DNA of 64,000 nucleotides from an uncultured Alphaproteobacteria bacterium. Lineage in GTDB: Bacteria; Pseudomonadota; Alphaproteobacteria; CAAHEQ01; UBA3637. The stretch is taken from NCBI GenBank assembly GCA_944391735.1, contig CALXUR010000005.1, forward strand, positions 6,428-70,427, given 5' to 3'. The notes under the pieces were generated by a model, which ran no database searches, was not told the DNA's origin, and worked only from the letters and a program-made list of their open reading frames with translations. Made by a program: the position numbers and the translations under genes. Positions 282-20,400 of the stretch are shown here, one piece after another (position 1 is the first letter of the stretch; each line of letters opens with the position of its first letter).

Positions 282-1556
282 TTATCCAGTTAATTCTGCA
301 TTATAAGTGCTTGTTTCTGCATTATTTTTTGATATTTCGCCACTTTCTAGCAGAACAGCCTTTTTACCGGTCCAATCTTCCCATCTTTTTACGATAACAT
401 CGCAGTATTTCGGGTCCAATTCCATCAATCTTGCGACTCGACCGGTCTTCTCACAGGCGATTAAAGTCGACCCGGAACCGCTAAATCCGTCCAAAACAAT
501 CTCGCCAACCTTGGAACTGTTGTTGATAGCGCGCTCAACAAGCTCGACCGGTTTCATTGTCGGGTGCAGGTCATTGTGCTGTGGCTTGTTATATTCCCAA
601 ATGTCGGATTGGTTCCGGTCACCACACCAATAGTGAGGCTTGTCGCTCACCCAGCCGTAGAGGATAGGTTCATATTGCCGCTGATAGTCAGCTCGGCCCA
701 AGGTAAAGGTGTTCTTGGTCCAAATGATAAAGGTGGACCATTTGCCGCCGGCTTTCACAAATGCCGAGTAAAGGGTGTGAAGTTCAGACGAACTCATGCA
801 AACGTAAGCGGCACCTTTGCAATACATCAGCATATTGGTGCAGGCATCGTAAAGGAACTGCTCGAAATCTTCGCCCAGGTTGTCGTTCATAATGGTGCGG
901 CCATGGTTCGGACTGGTGTGATAACGGAGTTTGTCTTTCATCGTTGCGCCGTAGTTAACATTGTATGGCGGGTCGGTAAAGATCATGTCGGCCACGTCGT
1001 TTTGCATTAACTTTTTGAAATCGTCTATCATGGTCGTGTCGCCGCACATCAACCGGTGGTTTCCCAACTGCCAAACGTCACCATGCTTGGAGGTAGGTTC
1101 AACCGGGGCCTCGGGAACCTCATCATCTTCGGTGTTACCAGTGTCCTGAATTTCGCCAAAGTTCTCGAGGGCCTTTAGTTCATCATTGGTAAAGCCGAGA
1201 TTAGTTAAATCAAAGTCCTCGTCTTTCAGCTCGCCGATTTCCAATGCCAACATCTTTTCATCCCAACCAGCGTTGAGGGCGATCCGGTTATCGGCAATGA
1301 CCAAGGCTCGGCGTTGTGTTTCGGTTAAGTCCGGTAAGACGATGACCGGGACTTCTGTCAAACCTAAGCGTTGAGCCGCCAAAAGTCTGCCATGTCCGGC
1401 AATGATAACGTTGTCCGAGCCGATAAGGATCGGGTTGGTAAAGCCGAACTCCTTAATACTGGCCATAATCTGTGCTACTTGCTCATCATTGTGCGTGCGC
1501 GAGTTGCGTGCGTAAGGGATAAGTTTATCCACTGGAAAATTCTGTTGAAATTCCAT
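282..1556 (-). CDS. ParB-like N-terminal domain fused to N6/N4 DNA methyltransferase
   Basis: ParB-like LIPYARNSRTH...IIAGHGRLLAA; catalytic DPPY; HPTMKP and VLDGFSGSGSTLIACE SAM-binding motif (beta-class order). Start moved to MEFQQ at 1556 (RBS GGAG). Confidence 0.92.
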   Translation of the reverse strand: MEFQQNFPVDKLIPYARNSRTHNDEQVAQIMASIKEFGFTNPILIGSDNVIIAGHGRLLAAQRLGLTEVPVIVLPDLTETQRRALVIADNRIALNAGWDEKMLALEIGELKDEDFDLTNLGFTNDELKALENFGEIQDTGNTEDDEVPEAPVEPTSKHGDVWQLGNHRLMCGDTTMIDDFKKLMQNDVADMIFTDPPYNVNYGATMKDKLRYHTSPNHGRTIMNDNLGEDFEQFLYDACTNMLMYCKGAAYVCMSSSELHTLYSAFVKAGGKWSTFIIWTKNTFTLGRADYQRQYEPILYGWVSDKPHYWCGDRNQSDIWEYNKPQHNDLHPTMKPVELVERAINNSSKVGEIVLDGFSGSGSTLIACEKTGRVARLMELDPKYCDVIVKRWEDWTGKKAVLLESGEISKNNAETSTYNAELTG

Positions 1557-1589
1557 TTTTGCTCCTGAATTTGTGTGATAAAACAAAGG

Positions 1590-1691
1590 GTGACCACCCA
1601 AAATTACAAAGTGACCACCCAAAATTTTAATTCGTTGTTATAACTATTTGATATTACTTTATTTTTAGGTGACCACTGACCACCCAAAATT
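1590..1691. repeat. Three direct repeats TGACCACCCAAAATT (1591, 1612, 1677) plus a partial GTGACCAC (1669); cosB R-site-like
   Basis: Exact 15-bp copies read from the sequence, immediately downstream (minus strand) of the cosN-like site. Confidence 0.75.
1641..1653 (-). promoter_or_regulatory. IHF-binding consensus site
   Basis: Minus strand TATCAAATAGTTA matches WATCAANNNNTTR exactly and lies in an AT-rich gap between two of the repeats. Confidence 0.6.
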
Positions 1692-1819: not shown

Positions 1820-2866
1820 TTAGGCAACAAGTTTGTCTTCCTGAACCGGAACGATAGTCAACGTCTGCAAAGTCTTGCGGCATAATTTGGTGTAAATCGG
1901 TCGATCCAAGCCGAAGAACTTGATTAAAGTATTCGGTTTTTGGTTGCAAACAAGCGGACTATTCGTAACAACACCGTTCTTAACAGTCCGGATCAAGCCG
2001 CTGGGCAGTTCAGACTTGCCGATGCAAGATGAAAGGTAGACGAAGCATTCATCATTGTCGCCAAGATGTTCGGTTGCAAGGTAACGTGCGTAGACATTCA
2101 ATGTTAAGTCAGCCTTGCTCGGGTCCTTGGTCCATGGCGAACCACCGCCAATCGGGCAGGCGGTAGAATAGAAGTCGCACGCTAATTTCCGACCGGTAAT
2201 ACCACAGTCGGCAATGGATGAATGGAATTGATAAATGCCTGTGCCATTCACGATGATGGACTTTAGCTCTTGTCCGAGCGCATCAACGACAAATGGTTTG
2301 ATGTCTTCCGGTTCCAGCATAGGTATGGCAACTATGGCAGTCACTATGTCACCGGTTGCATCATCTATGGTAATTTGTGTTTTTATGTCGAGGCCAAGGT
2401 TAGATGATGTCTTTGCATGTTCATAAAGAGCATTATTTAGTTTGCGTGCCAGCCATAACTCGCGGTTGATTAAGCCCGGTCCTTTGCAGGCATAGCCCAC
2501 AAACACGCCTTGATCTCCCCATCCATCGCGCTCGACACCTTGGTTGATGTCGGCCGATTGGACCCCGATTTTGTTTATGACCTCTATATGTCGAACATCT
2601 ATGGCATAATTTTTCCATATACTAGAGTAATGTTCATCATAACCGATTTCTCGGAGAGCATTGCAGACATATGTTTCGATGTCTGACATATCTACCGAAC
2701 CTTTGACCTCACCACCGAGCATAACGCAGTTATCTTTGATCATAACTTCCACAGCGTAATGAACGCCGGGATCCTGCTCGATAAGTCTGTCTAAAATGTA
2801 ACTTGAAATGTAATCGGCTGTTTTATCCGGGTGGCCGATAGACACCGCTTCAGCTGTTTTCAGCAT
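1820..2866 (-). CDS. Divergent S-adenosylmethionine synthetase-like protein (prophage copy)
   Basis: MetK motifs GHPDK, GDQG, DCGITGRK and KDPSKAD. Canonical GAGDQG and GGGAFSGKD are replaced by GWGDQG and GGGSPWTKD. RBS AGGAG. Confidence 0.85.
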   Translation of the reverse strand: MLKTAEAVSIGHPDKTADYISSYILDRLIEQDPGVHYAVEVMIKDNCVMLGGEVKGSVDMSDIETYVCNALREIGYDEHYSSIWKNYAIDVRHIEVINKIGVQSADINQGVERDGWGDQGVFVGYACKGPGLINRELWLARKLNNALYEHAKTSSNLGLDIKTQITIDDATGDIVTAIVAIPMLEPEDIKPFVVDALGQELKSIIVNGTGIYQFHSSIADCGITGRKLACDFYSTACPIGGGSPWTKDPSKADLTLNVYARYLATEHLGDNDECFVYLSSCIGKSELPSGLIRTVKNGVVTNSPLVCNQKPNTLIKFFGLDRPIYTKLCRKTLQTLTIVPVQEDKLVA

Positions 2867-2874
2867 AAGTTTTT

Positions 2875-2925
2875 CTCCTGTTTAGTCCGTTATAGTAGGA
2901 CAAGTTGGCCTAAATCCACATCACC
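2875..2925 (-). ncRNA. Putative SAM-II/SAM-V-class riboswitch overlapping the metK-like Shine-Dalgarno
   Basis: RNA GUGG-AUUU-AGGCCAAC-UUGUCC-UAC-UAUAAC-GGACUAAA-C-AGGAG. UUGUCC pairs with GGAC(U)AA, CC pairs with the GG of the SD, and P1 is GUG(G)/(C)UAC. It lies directly upstream of a SAM synthetase homolog. Confidence 0.65.
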
Positions 2926-2979
2926 ACGTCACCCGACGAGGTTGCTCTGATTATGGCAGATTTATTGGAAAATTACAAC

Positions 2980-3013
2980 AAAAAAATCCGCCGGTTTGCC
3001 GCCAGCGGATTTC
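2980..3013 (-). terminator. Intrinsic terminator between the DUF6362-like gene and metK-like gene
   Basis: AAAUCCGCUGG-cggcaaa-CCGGCGGAUUU followed by a U-tract on the minus strand. Confidence 0.75.
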
Positions 3014-3066
3014 AATGCTATTGTAAAAATGTATAACCGGAATTGCCTGTTTACACTTTCGTCCCG

Positions 3067-3075
3067 ATTATACCA
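3067..3075 (-). promoter_or_regulatory. Extended -10 promoter candidate (TG-G-TATAAT), no obvious -35
   Basis: Perfect TGnTATAAT just after the DUF6362-like stop codon and upstream of the terminator. Confidence 0.4.
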
Positions 3076-3079
3076 ATTT

Positions 3080-3502
3080 TTATAGCACTTTTTTTTGAAA
3101 ATGTCTTGTCTTTTTTTGTCTTGACAAATTTCCTGCTAGGTATCCTCGTAAGTAATTGATAATACGTTCATATCGCACGTTCAATTGAGGCCTTGATAAG
3201 CCATATTCGTGACATAGTAGCTTCCAAGGAATATGACAAGCACGTTTCCATACGAGTGTTCTTTCATCAACAGTCAGCAATGGCAACCATTTCAGAATAA
3301 CTCTTTCCCAAATATCAATTTGCTCTTTAGTTGGACGAGGCGGTTTTGGTCGCTGATCCATAAAAGCAATTTCTTGTGGAGTGTAAACGATTTCAAAAAG
3401 CCAACAGCGATATTTTGGCGGTCGAACCGGAGGTAAAAGCCGCTCTACGTAAGCCGCCGTTGCTAAATCTCTTTTGATTTGTTCAAGTGTGACTTGCTTC
3501 AT
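3080..3502 (-). CDS. DUF6362-like phage protein (possible late-gene regulator)
   Basis: LPPVRPPKY...W...EIVYTPQE...WLPLL..DERTLVWKRACHIPWKLLC pattern, recognised as typical of alphaproteobacterial prophage genes preceding the packaging region. Confidence 0.6.
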   Translation of the reverse strand: MKQVTLEQIKRDLATAAYVERLLPPVRPPKYRCWLFEIVYTPQEIAFMDQRPKPPRPTKEQIDIWERVILKWLPLLTVDERTLVWKRACHIPWKLLCHEYGLSRPQLNVRYERIINYLRGYLAGNLSRQKKTRHFQKKVL

Positions 3503-18041: not shown

Positions 18042-19406
18042 ATGTTATCTGCAGATGCGCACCGTTTAACAGACGGACATATAGCCCGCACACTTTTTAA
18101 GTTTGCCCTTCCCTATTTGGGCGCTAATTTCCTTGTGGCTCTTTATGGTGCAGCCGACGTTCTGATTGTCAGTTATTTTGCAAGTCCCGCAGCACTTGCG
18201 GCAACGTCCACGGGGGCGCAGGCCGTATTTACGATGATGGCTCTGGCAATCGGGTTAACACTGGGCGGAACCATTTTAATCGGGCAATATTTCGGTGCCA
18301 AAAAGGAAAAGGATGTTATTGAAACGATTCAAACGGTATTTTCCCTGTTTGCCATTACCGCTTTGATCGGTTCAGCCGTTATGTTCATTTTTGCCCGTCC
18401 GATCGCCGCACTTTTGGAAACACCGCCGGAAGCATTTCAAGGTGCCTGTCAATACATCATGATTTGCGGTGGCGGATTAATCTTTACTTTTGCTTATGAA
18501 TCGATCAGTGCCGTTCTTCGTGGTCTGGGAGATTCTAAAAATCCGTTAAAATTCATTGCGGCAGCTTGTTCAATGAATATCCTTTTAGACTTATTGTTTG
18601 TCGGGGGATTCAATTGGGGTGCCGCGGGTGCCGCAGCGGCAACCGTTATCTCCCAGGCATTCAGTGTTCTGGTGGCTGTTCTGTATTTACGACACCGAAA
18701 ATTTATCTTTGACTTTTCATGGAAGAGTTTCGGATTTCATTCTGAAAAAGCAAAAAAAATTTTACGTCTTGGTATTCCGTCCGCCATTCAACAAACCGTT
18801 ATTTTTACATCCTTTACCATTATGACCGCCATCGTGAACAAAATGGGAGTTATCGCTTCGGCGGCTGCCGGCATTACAACCAAAATAGACGGTTTTATGA
18901 TTATGCCGTCTTTGGCATTCGCCTCTGCCGTTTCGGTTATGACGGCACAAAACATCGGCGCACGCCAAATCAAGCGAGCAAAAGAAACATTCTATACCGG
19001 TTTTTTGATGGCTTTATGTTTTGGCGCACCGTCATTTTATATGATGTATCACCATGCGCCGACCGTGATGCGGCTTGTAACCGAAAATACCGATATTATC
19101 AACGCGGGTGCCGATTTTATGTTAGCCTATAGTCCCGATTGTATTTTGTTAAGCCTTGTTTTTTGTCTGAACGGTTTTTTAAATGGCAGCGGGCGAACCA
19201 CATTCACAATGACAAATAATTTAATATCCACTTTGTTCTTTCGGGTTCCCCTTATTTTCCAAGCAACAACTCTGTTTGCGGCAGGCTTTGCACTTCCGCT
19301 TTCTACGATACCGCAAATCATGTTATCTTTATTTTATTTTTACAAAGGATATTGGAAAAAATCCGTTATTGATAACCCAAGGAGAAAAAATGATCAAAAC
19401 AGCTGA
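18042..19406 (+). CDS. MATE family efflux transporter
   Basis: About 12 hydrophobic segments; LRGLGDSKNPL, NILLDLLFV..G.AGAAAATVISQ, AQNIGA. Confidence 0.92.
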   Translation: MLSADAHRLTDGHIARTLFKFALPYLGANFLVALYGAADVLIVSYFASPAALAATSTGAQAVFTMMALAIGLTLGGTILIGQYFGAKKEKDVIETIQTVFSLFAITALIGSAVMFIFARPIAALLETPPEAFQGACQYIMICGGGLIFTFAYESISAVLRGLGDSKNPLKFIAAACSMNILLDLLFVGGFNWGAAGAAAATVISQAFSVLVAVLYLRHRKFIFDFSWKSFGFHSEKAKKILRLGIPSAIQQTVIFTSFTIMTAIVNKMGVIASAAAGITTKIDGFMIMPSLAFASAVSVMTAQNIGARQIKRAKETFYTGFLMALCFGAPSFYMMYHHAPTVMRLVTENTDIINAGADFMLAYSPDCILLSLVFCLNGFLNGSGRTTFTMTNNLISTLFFRVPLIFQATTLFAAGFALPLSTIPQIMLSLFYFYKGYWKKSVIDNPRRKNDQNS

Positions 19407-20400
19407 ATTTGTTTCTTTAGGACATCCCGATAAAACGGCCGATTTTATTACCAGTTACATTTTAGACCGCTTGATTGAGCAAGATGAACTTGTTAAATAC
19501 GGTGTCGAAGTGATGATAAAAGACAACACCGTCGTGTTGGGCGGAGAAATTAACGGACATGTTGTTCTGAATGACCTGACAAGTTGGGTCAAAGAAGCGT
19601 TACGCCAAATCGGATATGATGAACACTACGCCTCTTTATGGGGAAATAACGCCGTCAACATCAACAAATTGAATGTTATCAATTTAATCGGGCTACAATC
19701 TCCGGAAATTAATCAGGGGGTCATACAAAACGGTTGGGGCGACCAAGGCGTGTTTGTGGGATACGCCTGTCAAGGTCCGGATTTTTTACCCAGAGAGTTA
19801 TCATTGGCGCGAAAGTTGGCAAATACATTTTACGAACAAGCCAAACAATCGGATTGTTTGGGGTTGGATATTAAGGCTCAAATCACATTGGATGAAGAAA
19901 ATCACATCGAAACGGCGATACTGGCCGTTCCGATGCGTCGGCCTGTTGACATTTCAAATGAGGAAATTGCCGCCGCATTAGGGGAACAACCTAAAAACAT
20001 CATTGTGAACGGAACAGGATCTTATACCACCCACTCTGCCGTTGCCGATTGCGGTATTACGGGACGTAAACTGGCATGCGACTTTTACTCAACCGCCTGT
20101 CCGGTCGGTGGCGGATCTCCATGGACAAAAGACGCCACAAAAGCAGATTTGACCTTAAATTTATATGCGCGAAAATTGGCAATTGACTTGTTACGGGAAA
20201 ATGACGAATGTTTCGTCTACCTGTCTTCGTGTATCGGCCGGAGTGAGTTGCCGAGTGCTGTTGTCAAAACAATTAAAAACGGGGTCATAAAGGTAAACAA
20301 TATTCAAATAAAACAAACCCCGAAAGACATGATTCAACAACTCGGTCTGAACAAACCGGTTTTCGCCGACATGTGCCGCACAGGTATTGTATTATATTAA
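19390..20400 (+). CDS. metK: Divergent S-adenosylmethionine synthetase-like protein (chromosomal copy)
   Basis: GHPDK, GWGDQG, DCGITGRK, GGGSPWTKD..KAD. Start at MIKT (RBS AGGAG) overlaps the MATE 3' end. Confidence 0.8.
   Translation: MIKTAEFVSLGHPDKTADFITSYILDRLIEQDELVKYGVEVMIKDNTVVLGGEINGHVVLNDLTSWVKEALRQIGYDEHYASLWGNNAVNINKLNVINLIGLQSPEINQGVIQNGWGDQGVFVGYACQGPDFLPRELSLARKLANTFYEQAKQSDCLGLDIKAQITLDEENHIETAILAVPMRRPVDISNEEIAAALGEQPKNIIVNGTGSYTTHSAVADCGITGRKLACDFYSTACPVGGGSPWTKDATKADLTLNLYARKLAIDLLRENDECFVYLSSCIGRSELPSAVVKTIKNGVIKVNNIQIKQTPKDMIQQLGLNKPVFADMCRTGIVLY

Follow-up and report, generated by a model that had tools for sequence, protein, structure and literature searches.

A SAM-II/SAM-V-like element before a prophage metK gene as a putative S-adenosylmethionine riboswitch in gut Alphaproteobacteria

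Introduction

The closest described systems are two classes of riboswitches for S-adenosylmethionine (SAM): SAM-II (Rfam RF00521, SAM_alpha) and SAM-V (RF01826). In SAM-II aptamers helix P1 has 6 bp or more, P2 has 4 bp and P2a is usually a GC-rich helix of 5 bp; these riboswitches act mostly on transcription (PMC6061858). The SAM-II riboswitch of metX (2QWY) is translational and has a 2-bp P2a (PMC6061858). SAM-V is represented by the metY and bhmT leaders of 'Candidatus Pelagibacter ubique' (PDB 6FZ0), and it works with a 4-bp P1 and a 2-bp P2a (PMC6061858). The metY sequence can be written as AGGC-GCAUUUGAACUGUA-UUGUAC-GCCU-[P3]-AAA-GUACUAAAAAAGG, and that of bhmT as GGGC-AGUUGAACCAUA-UUGUGC-GCCC-...-GCACUAAAAAGGA (PMC6061858).

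Riboswitches are described as rare in phages (PMC9004378). Glutamine riboswitches have been described in marine cyanophages, pelagiphages and the methylophage Melnitz (PMC9004378). We have found no published case of a SAM riboswitch carried by a phage.

We have analyzed a stretch of 64,000 nt from an uncultured alphaproteobacterium, which we call the window, where a sequence-only reading had pointed to a SAM-II/SAM-V-like element in front of a metK-like gene. In our opinion the 5' UTR of this prophage gene, about 77 nt long, is probably a translational OFF riboswitch for SAM, and one instance of a wider class. The grounds for this opinion are sequence, conservation, covariation, gene association and the equivalence of the core to that of SAM-V.

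Results

The prophage and its metK gene

The RNA string described in the sequence-only reading is found, letter by letter, on the minus strand at 2919-2875. It reads GUG-GAUUU-AGGCCAAC-UUGUCC-UAC-UAUAAC-GGACUAAA-C-AGGAG and is followed by 8 nt and by the ATG at 2866. Its parts are listed in Table 1. The gene behind it had been taken for a SAM synthetase homolog, and the ORF does contain all three S-AdoMet synthetase Pfam domains. It also matches solved MetK structures in the PDB (E 2e-40). With the NCBIfam metK model it reaches 174 bits, the cutoff being 309, so it is a divergent, short methionine adenosyltransferase.

The genes are arranged in the order serine recombinase, sigma-like protein, DUF6291, DUF6362, leader, metK and ParB-N/DNA methylase. 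Beyond the left edge of the window there are lambda-type packaging genes (TerS, TerL and portal), and the SAM-synthetase/DNA-methylase module adjoins cos. Viral contigs in IMG/VR contain MetK proteins 95–97% identical to this one in the same gene order, which shows that the prophage location proposed earlier is real: This is a genuine lambda-like prophage. A module whose proteins are 98–100% identical is found in another genus of the same family (L410, G168:C3:90000-107000), with the genes for recombinase, sigma-like protein, DUF6291, DUF6362, MetK, ParB-methylase, TerS and TerL. This suggests either that the phage infects more than one genus or that binning has produced an artefact.

The genome contains three MetK-like copies, and the prophage copy is the only one with the aptamer. 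The chromosomal copy (window 19390-20400, plus strand) has neither leader nor element, and its 5' end overlaps the 3' end of a MATE transporter gene. The third copy is truncated (232 aa) and is found in a second phage-like remnant (C1:23560-27693), together with a serine recombinase, DUF6291 and DUF6362. This remnant occupies the site where the sister species G107 and G127 have aptamer-metK.

Table 1. Features of the metK leader and its surroundings in the window, and loci compared with it in other genomes
Feature	Position	Strand	Remarks
Intrinsic terminator	2983..3013	-	12-bp stem and U-run, from a terminator scan; module kept in relatives
Sigma-70-like promoter of the metK leader	2950..2978	-	-35 TTGTAA (2978-2973), 17-nt spacer, -10 CATAAT (2955-2950)
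5'-terminal hairpin CCUCGUC-GGGU-GACGUGG	2924..2941	-	18 nt; 4 nt upstream of P1
P1 5' strand GUG	2919-2917	-	Partner UAC (2897-2895): G-C, U-A, G.U
Third (triplex) strand GAUUU	2916-2912	-	Based on the SAM-V contact table (PMC6061858)
Turn AGGCCAAC	2911-2904	-	CC (2908-2907) complementary to GG of the Shine-Dalgarno (2878-2877), helix P2a
P2 5' strand UUGUCC	2903-2898	-	SAM-V U19-C24
P1 3' strand UAC	2897-2895	-	Abuts P2 directly, as in SAM-V
L3 linker UAUAAC	2894-2889	-	6 nt, no P3 hairpin
P2 3' strand GGACUAAA	2888-2881	-	U2884 is a one-nt bulge (SAM-V U47, adenine contact)
C	2880	-	Between P2 3' strand and Shine-Dalgarno
Shine-Dalgarno AGGAG	2879-2875	-	8 nt ahead of the ATG; spacer AAAAACUU
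metK-like gene	1820..2866	-	348 aa, short divergent methionine adenosyltransferase; Pfam S-AdoMet_synt N, M and C
ParB-N/DNA methyltransferase	282..1622	-	SAM consumer, next gene downstream of metK
Sole MetK of sister genomes	G107:C6:51273-52253; G121:C1:274914-275897; G133:C8:9182-10168		150-170 bits with NCBIfam metK, cutoff 309
145-190 aa protein family	L260:6657-7112; L277:3998-4453; L303:5607-6065; L218:3094-3651; others		Alignment A3

Transcription of the leader

A terminator, a promoter and an 18-nt hairpin are found upstream of the aptamer, which implies a dedicated 5' UTR of about 77 nt, whose transcription would start near 2943. The terminator (3013-2983) is predicted to isolate the metK leader from transcription upstream. 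In relatives the -10 box is also found just upstream of the 5' hairpin. A promoter within the motif itself (TGGATT-18-TATAAC) was considered and rejected: The -10-like hexamer is not kept in L007 and L028.

In L004 the 5' hairpin has changed in a compensatory way (CCUCAUC...GAUGAGG). Of 147 distinct flanks upstream of the aptamer, about two thirds have a hairpin that ends 2–4 nt before P1 (mean folding z -1.7). In most members where the Shine-Dalgarno (SD) follows the aptamer directly ('type A'), this hairpin has a different sequence and the same structure, and is placed right behind the -10 box. It is a candidate for protection of the 5' end of the mRNA, or for stacking support of the short P1 (as a P0 helix), or for both. 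The MFE fold of the window leader is not unusually stable (z -0.63), an uninformative value, since pseudoknots are outside the folding model.

Another module is found further upstream. An extended -10 box, TGGTATAAT (3075-3067, minus strand), comes directly after the stop codon of DUF6362, and the corresponding RNA of about 85 nt ends at the strong terminator 3013-2983. This module of promoter, hairpin and terminator is also present in relatives which have no aptamer; in them the metK SD adjoins the terminator directly. The whole module (window 2981-3075) resembles the PR'/6S RNA/tR' late leader of lambda, so DUF6362 might be a Q-like antiterminator.

Comparison with SAM-V and SAM-II

The P2, P1 and CC/GG pairings named in the sequence-only reading are each possible as stated, and the proposed SAM-II/SAM-V-like fold stands: Its topology and core residues equal those of the crystallised SAM-V and of canonical SAM-II from the host's class. 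As in SAM-V, an H-type pseudoknot has a short P1 which abuts P2, a helix of 6 bp with one bulged U (UUGUxC/GxACUAAA). The agreement holds residue by residue for G5, A7-U10, U19-C24, G43-A50 and the bulged U47. In the 3' strand of P2, A2883 and A2882 pair with UU, and A2881 corresponds to SAM-V A50. All the nucleotides that contact SAM in SAM-V are kept (U8, U9, U20, U47 and A48-A50). Spacing is the same as in the bhmT SAM-V (CC-3 nt-UUG and CUAAA-2 nt-GG), with a 2-bp P2a between turn and SD. The host is also an alphaproteobacterium with a streamlined genome, and control would also be translational.

On the other hand, the window element lacks the P3 of most SAM-V, and nothing in it corresponds to the extruded C6. 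Position 18 is C instead of A, the turn is shorter, and there is an extra 5' hairpin. P1, considered from the start as the weak point of the structure, has in fact only three pairs, one of them G.U. The two lineages are also different: This one is found in the gut and not in marine bacteria, it precedes metK and not metY or bhmT, and the SAM_V covariance model gives it 12.9–24.5 bits, against a threshold of 41.

The core of SAM-II is also present (GAUUU...CUUG...CUAAA, with C before UUG), without P3. The last nucleotide of the turn, C2904, is in the position of SAM-V A18, and it is C as in canonical SAM-II. Canonical SAM-II sequences which we have retrieved from the host's class have this C before UUG, for example ...GUGGUGAUUUGAGCCGACCGGCUUGCGGCCAC...GCUAAAAGGUCG. 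With a P1 of 3 bp, a P2 of 6 bp and a P2a of 2 bp, the window element nevertheless falls outside the SAM-II architecture. Canonical SAM-II is found in 48 of the 121 sampled genomes of the host's class. Within the host's family 41 genomes have been sampled, and both canonical SAM-II and SAM-V are absent from all of them. Current annotation thus leaves this family without a SAM sensor.

Searches with Rfam models and chance expectation

A search with the Rfam models of SAM_V and SAM_alpha, suggested as a check in the sequence-only reading, gives scores below gathering in both cases. SAM_V comes out on top of 4227 Rfam families for a 75-nt slice of the window, with 12.9 bits and a gathering score of 41. 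For SAM_alpha (gathering score 36 bits) the site stays below about 10 bits: It is absent from the matches in its own genome down to 9.7 bits, and from the evalue-mode scans. No Rfam family reaches its gathering threshold in the whole window or in 18 other members of the family, and the divergent member L395 has no Rfam match. The element is therefore not a catalogued member of Rfam. The best genome-wide SAM_V matches of G133 and G192, also below threshold (24.5 and 23.2 bits), coincide with sites of R1, a covariance model which we have built from the family. Failure to reach the catalogued thresholds, together with an architecture unlike both SAM-II and SAM-V, makes this a variant distinct from each which shares their binding core.

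Several other matches were discarded. A SAM-II long-loop match of 13.7 bits at 3072-3116, from an evalue scan of 2780-3120, is in a different place and represents A-rich noise; the remainder is noise driven by the terminator. Four sub-threshold SAM_alpha/SAM_V matches (L411, L412, L415 and L416) lack the core, and L411 is in coding sequence.

A pattern of the core based on sequence only is not rare: It has two matches in the 64-kb window, where 0.43 are expected. We have also used a descriptor of SAM-V derived from the literature, which combines AUUU and UUGxyC/Gy'x'CUAAA (x and y complementary) with a 3-bp P1 abutting P2. This descriptor has one match in the whole 1.0-Mb genome, which is the window site, and 0.2 matches per Mb in simulated sequence. 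The comparative data described below (pattern scans and covariation) decide the matter against a chance resemblance.

Conservation and covariation

With a degenerate pattern we have obtained at least 120 matches in metagenome contigs, where about 9 are expected at random. A second pattern has given at least 120 matches in contigs of species genomes; for the two scans the random expectation is about 8–9. Among the matches listed, 4–5 are random and the others precede an SD and a start codon; nearly all precede one short MetK clade. Nearly all of the genome matches listed come from gut or rumen MAGs, whose label is either Alphaproteobacteria or 'Candidatus Enterousia'. The GAUUU/AUUU strand and the nucleotides that contact SAM are invariant in the family, an invariance partly forced by the patterns which collected the sequences; R1 has been trained on these same sequences.

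Covariation across homologous leaders had also been proposed as a check, and here the answer is positive: More than 90 distinct sequences keep the element and show covariation, and the gene that follows is nearly always MetK-like. In 94 distinct sequences, one of the pairs in P1 is UA (38), GC (27), CG (15) or AU (3), and the next one is UA (44), UG (31) or CG (19), with no mismatch. P2 is paired in 100% of these sequences, including two positions which are free in the metagenome pattern, and one of its pairs is CG in 89 of them and UA in 5. Overall, 88% of the cells are paired, against 26–50% when the partner columns are slid. The turn is otherwise variable, yet it contains CC in 92 of the 94 members and CUC or CUCU in the remaining two, which is consistent with a P2a contact to the SD. 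The L3 linker is A-rich across the family, with variable sequence and length. Many members have a P1 of 4–7 bp, compared with 3 bp in the window copy.

The window copy has 59 bits with R1 and is the sole strong match in its genome. A weak match at C1:30666 was rejected after reading its sequence, which has no core; R1 also gives weaker matches on C10 and C2. Within the genus, 8 of 10 genomes have the R1 motif, and within the order 24 of 80; it is absent from the 16 sampled genomes of other families. Some members are divergent. L393 has A at position 18, like SAM-V. In L395, the only member with a P3-like hairpin, P1 has 7 bp and CC/GG is replaced by CUCU/AGAG. These two members form a bridge to the known classes.

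Genes behind the aptamer and expression platforms

The sister genomes G107, G121 and G133 are complete and have a single MetK homolog each, placed directly behind the aptamer, so the class would control the housekeeping SAM synthetase. The same appears to be true of many gut Alphaproteobacteria, where it is the sole enzyme of this kind. Standard annotation may leave this lineage without any gene named metK, as the short divergent clade is its only methionine adenosyltransferase homolog.

About two thirds of the members have the same layout as the window: -10 box, 5' hairpin, aptamer, SD and ATG. Another layout is found in a subgroup with a remote platform (L163, L173, L183, L202, L272, L274, L284, L292, L301, L304, L328 and L336). 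In these members the aptamer is at the extreme 5' end and is followed, after about 100 nt, by AAUCCACCUU, which is complementary to the 5' strand of the aptamer, AAGGUGGAUU. This 10-nt anti-aptamer overlaps a 9-bp hairpin, CCUUUGGUU/AACCAAAGG, which buries the metK SD. This classic combination of aptamer, anti-aptamer and sequestor is sensible only for an RNA switch driven by a ligand. The subgroup also has an upstream ORF of about 51 codons, preceded by an SD, which enters metK out of frame.

The generic features of riboswitches are present in this class: There is a covarying aptamer with an expression platform, upstream of the sole MetK and of one further gene family without known function. 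This second family consists of conserved proteins of 145–190 aa, which many gut Alphaproteobacteria encode directly after this aptamer. They share the motif ..APTTDxGAISCLFxNLxLI..GLYVGGLYVG..IIGSPLSG.. and have no match in Pfam, PHROG or NCBIfam. The AlphaFold model is confident (pLDDT 91.6), with no match in PDB or BFVD at E <= 0.001. Since the aptamer also precedes this uncharacterised family, the regulon is not fully tied to SAM.

The aptamer is also found ahead of a few small ORFs. In two genomes there are paired aptamers close together (L261:4073-4404 and L288:2118-3806): The first is before an ORF of 71–99 aa with a W..DN..F.FD..LH.S motif, the second before metK.

Phage and chromosomal copies

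The element is not specific to phages; it belongs to a class found in chromosomes, of which the phage copy is one example. In IMG/VR the motif is present in only eight contigs, which correspond to one phage group, and it precedes metK in all eight. Three diverged lineages of phage MetK homologs (66–97% protein identity) have kept the leader, with changes only in the turn, in the linker and in the G.U pair of P1, which becomes G-C. More than 60 other homologs have no leader. Sister phages of the same group (L008-L017) also lack the aptamer, and their metK is found directly behind the upstream terminator.

In the MetK tree, whose backbone is unresolved, phage and chromosomal copies interleave, with at least four changes forced, and the phage copies with aptamer are placed in at least three positions among chromosomal copies. 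These placements suggest that the aptamer-metK cassette has been exchanged repeatedly. The phage group seems to have acquired aptamer and metK together.

Discussion

The mechanism that we infer for the window leader takes its details from SAM-V and from the SAM-II of metX. P1 (GUG/UAC) and P2 (UUGUCC/GGAC-U-AA) would pre-form the pseudoknot. When SAM is abundant, it would insert beside the bulged U2884, with its sulfonium near the carbonyls of conserved U's, and GAUUU would be locked into the major groove of P2. The CC of the turn would then be brought onto the GG of the SD, its proposed P2a partner. The SD would be occluded in this SAM-bound fold, the 30S subunit would be excluded and MetK would not be made. 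When SAM falls, the triplex and P2a would open and metK would be translated. The sequence-only reading had supposed that the phage monitors the SAM of its host and produces a synthetase of its own only when SAM is low, a supposition which we share. The benefit for the phage might be SAM on demand, either for the adjacent ParB-methyltransferase or for the lysogen, without overproduction and without draining ATP or methionine.

Three other explanations have to be weighed. The class may be real and the prophage copy a weakened or constitutive relic, with metK expression set by its promoter and by read-through from the late operon. We consider this improbable. It is true that the window copy has a P1 of 3 bp including a G.U and a P2a of 2 bp, that P1 has 4–7 bp in many other members, and that phages L008-L017 of the same group manage without an aptamer. 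Nevertheless, SAM-V itself functions with a 4-bp P1 and a 2-bp P2a, and the short form of P1, with its adjacent 5' hairpin, is also found before the only metK of chromosomes in the same genus. The conservation in three phage lineages (66–97% MetK identity) also argues against a relic, as the changes are placed in loops or improve pairing, as in the replacement of G.U by G-C.

The same fold might also bind another ligand, such as SAH, decarboxy-SAM, MTA or another compound of the methionine cycle. Variant aptamers can switch ligands, as in SAM-I variants which sense spermidine (PMC10853860), a case that concerns SAM-I and not SAM-II. Two facts point in the same direction: The architecture is unlike SAM-II and SAM-V (no C6, no P3, C at position 18), and a further gene family behind the aptamer has no known function. 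Yet every nucleotide that contacts SAM in SAM-V is kept, the C at position 18 is the canonical state in SAM-II, and the gene behind the aptamer in most cases encodes the sole SAM synthetase, a classic target of SAM feedback. A shifted ligand seems to us unlikely, a shade more so than a relic.

The third explanation, in which there is no metabolite sensor and the motif is a protein operator (inverted repeat TTGTCC-N9-GGACTAA), a generic structure that stabilises mRNA or enhances translation, or a chance match, is very improbable: At the DNA level the arms of P2 do constitute an inverted repeat, matches to the sequence-only pattern are not rare in 64 kb and Rfam gives no match at threshold, but the GUGGAUUUA strand and the CC of the turn are outside the repeat and equally conserved, P1 covaries as RNA pairs which include G.U, chromosomes and phages both carry the element with no common neighbouring regulator gene, the anti-aptamer platform of the subgroup fits only an RNA switch, and the structural descriptor is unique in the genome. 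The DNA operator in particular has been rejected, because of the conserved 5' strand outside the repeat and the G.U pairs in the covariation of P1.

We thus maintain the reading of a translational OFF riboswitch for SAM. Like the phage glutamine riboswitches, this leader would be a metabolite sensor in a phage of a streamlined host, where it would control a phage gene. The ligand class and the fold are different. A further difference is that the window aptamer would control the phage copy of the enzyme which makes the ligand, and that chromosomes of the host lineage contain its direct counterpart.

In summary, the element may be described as an uncatalogued relative of SAM-II and SAM-V, common in gut Alphaproteobacteria with small genomes, which most likely blocks translation when SAM is plentiful. 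A wider proposal is tentative, although we do not consider it far-fetched. It would be a third, self-standing branch of SAM-II/SAM-V, with a 6-bp P2, no P3, a minimal P1 supported by a 5' hairpin, and expression platforms of two kinds. Together with the short MetK it would form a mobile cassette, exchanged between gut Alphaproteobacteria and their temperate phages, it would meter SAM for the phage DNA methyltransferase, and it would place the uncharacterised protein family under SAM control. If this is true, a protein family without a matching fold under such control points to an unknown function related to SAM.

Biological significance

The class would add a widespread, uncatalogued lineage to the SAM-II/SAM-V riboswitches. 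It would explain how the only SAM synthetase is regulated in the tiny genomes (about 1.1–1.5 Mb) of gut Alphaproteobacteria of this order. The 145–190 aa family behind the same aptamer is a lead to a new function related to SAM or methionine. Finally, the prophage copy offers a testable case of a virus which would run an auxiliary metabolic gene by means of a metabolite sensor of the host type.
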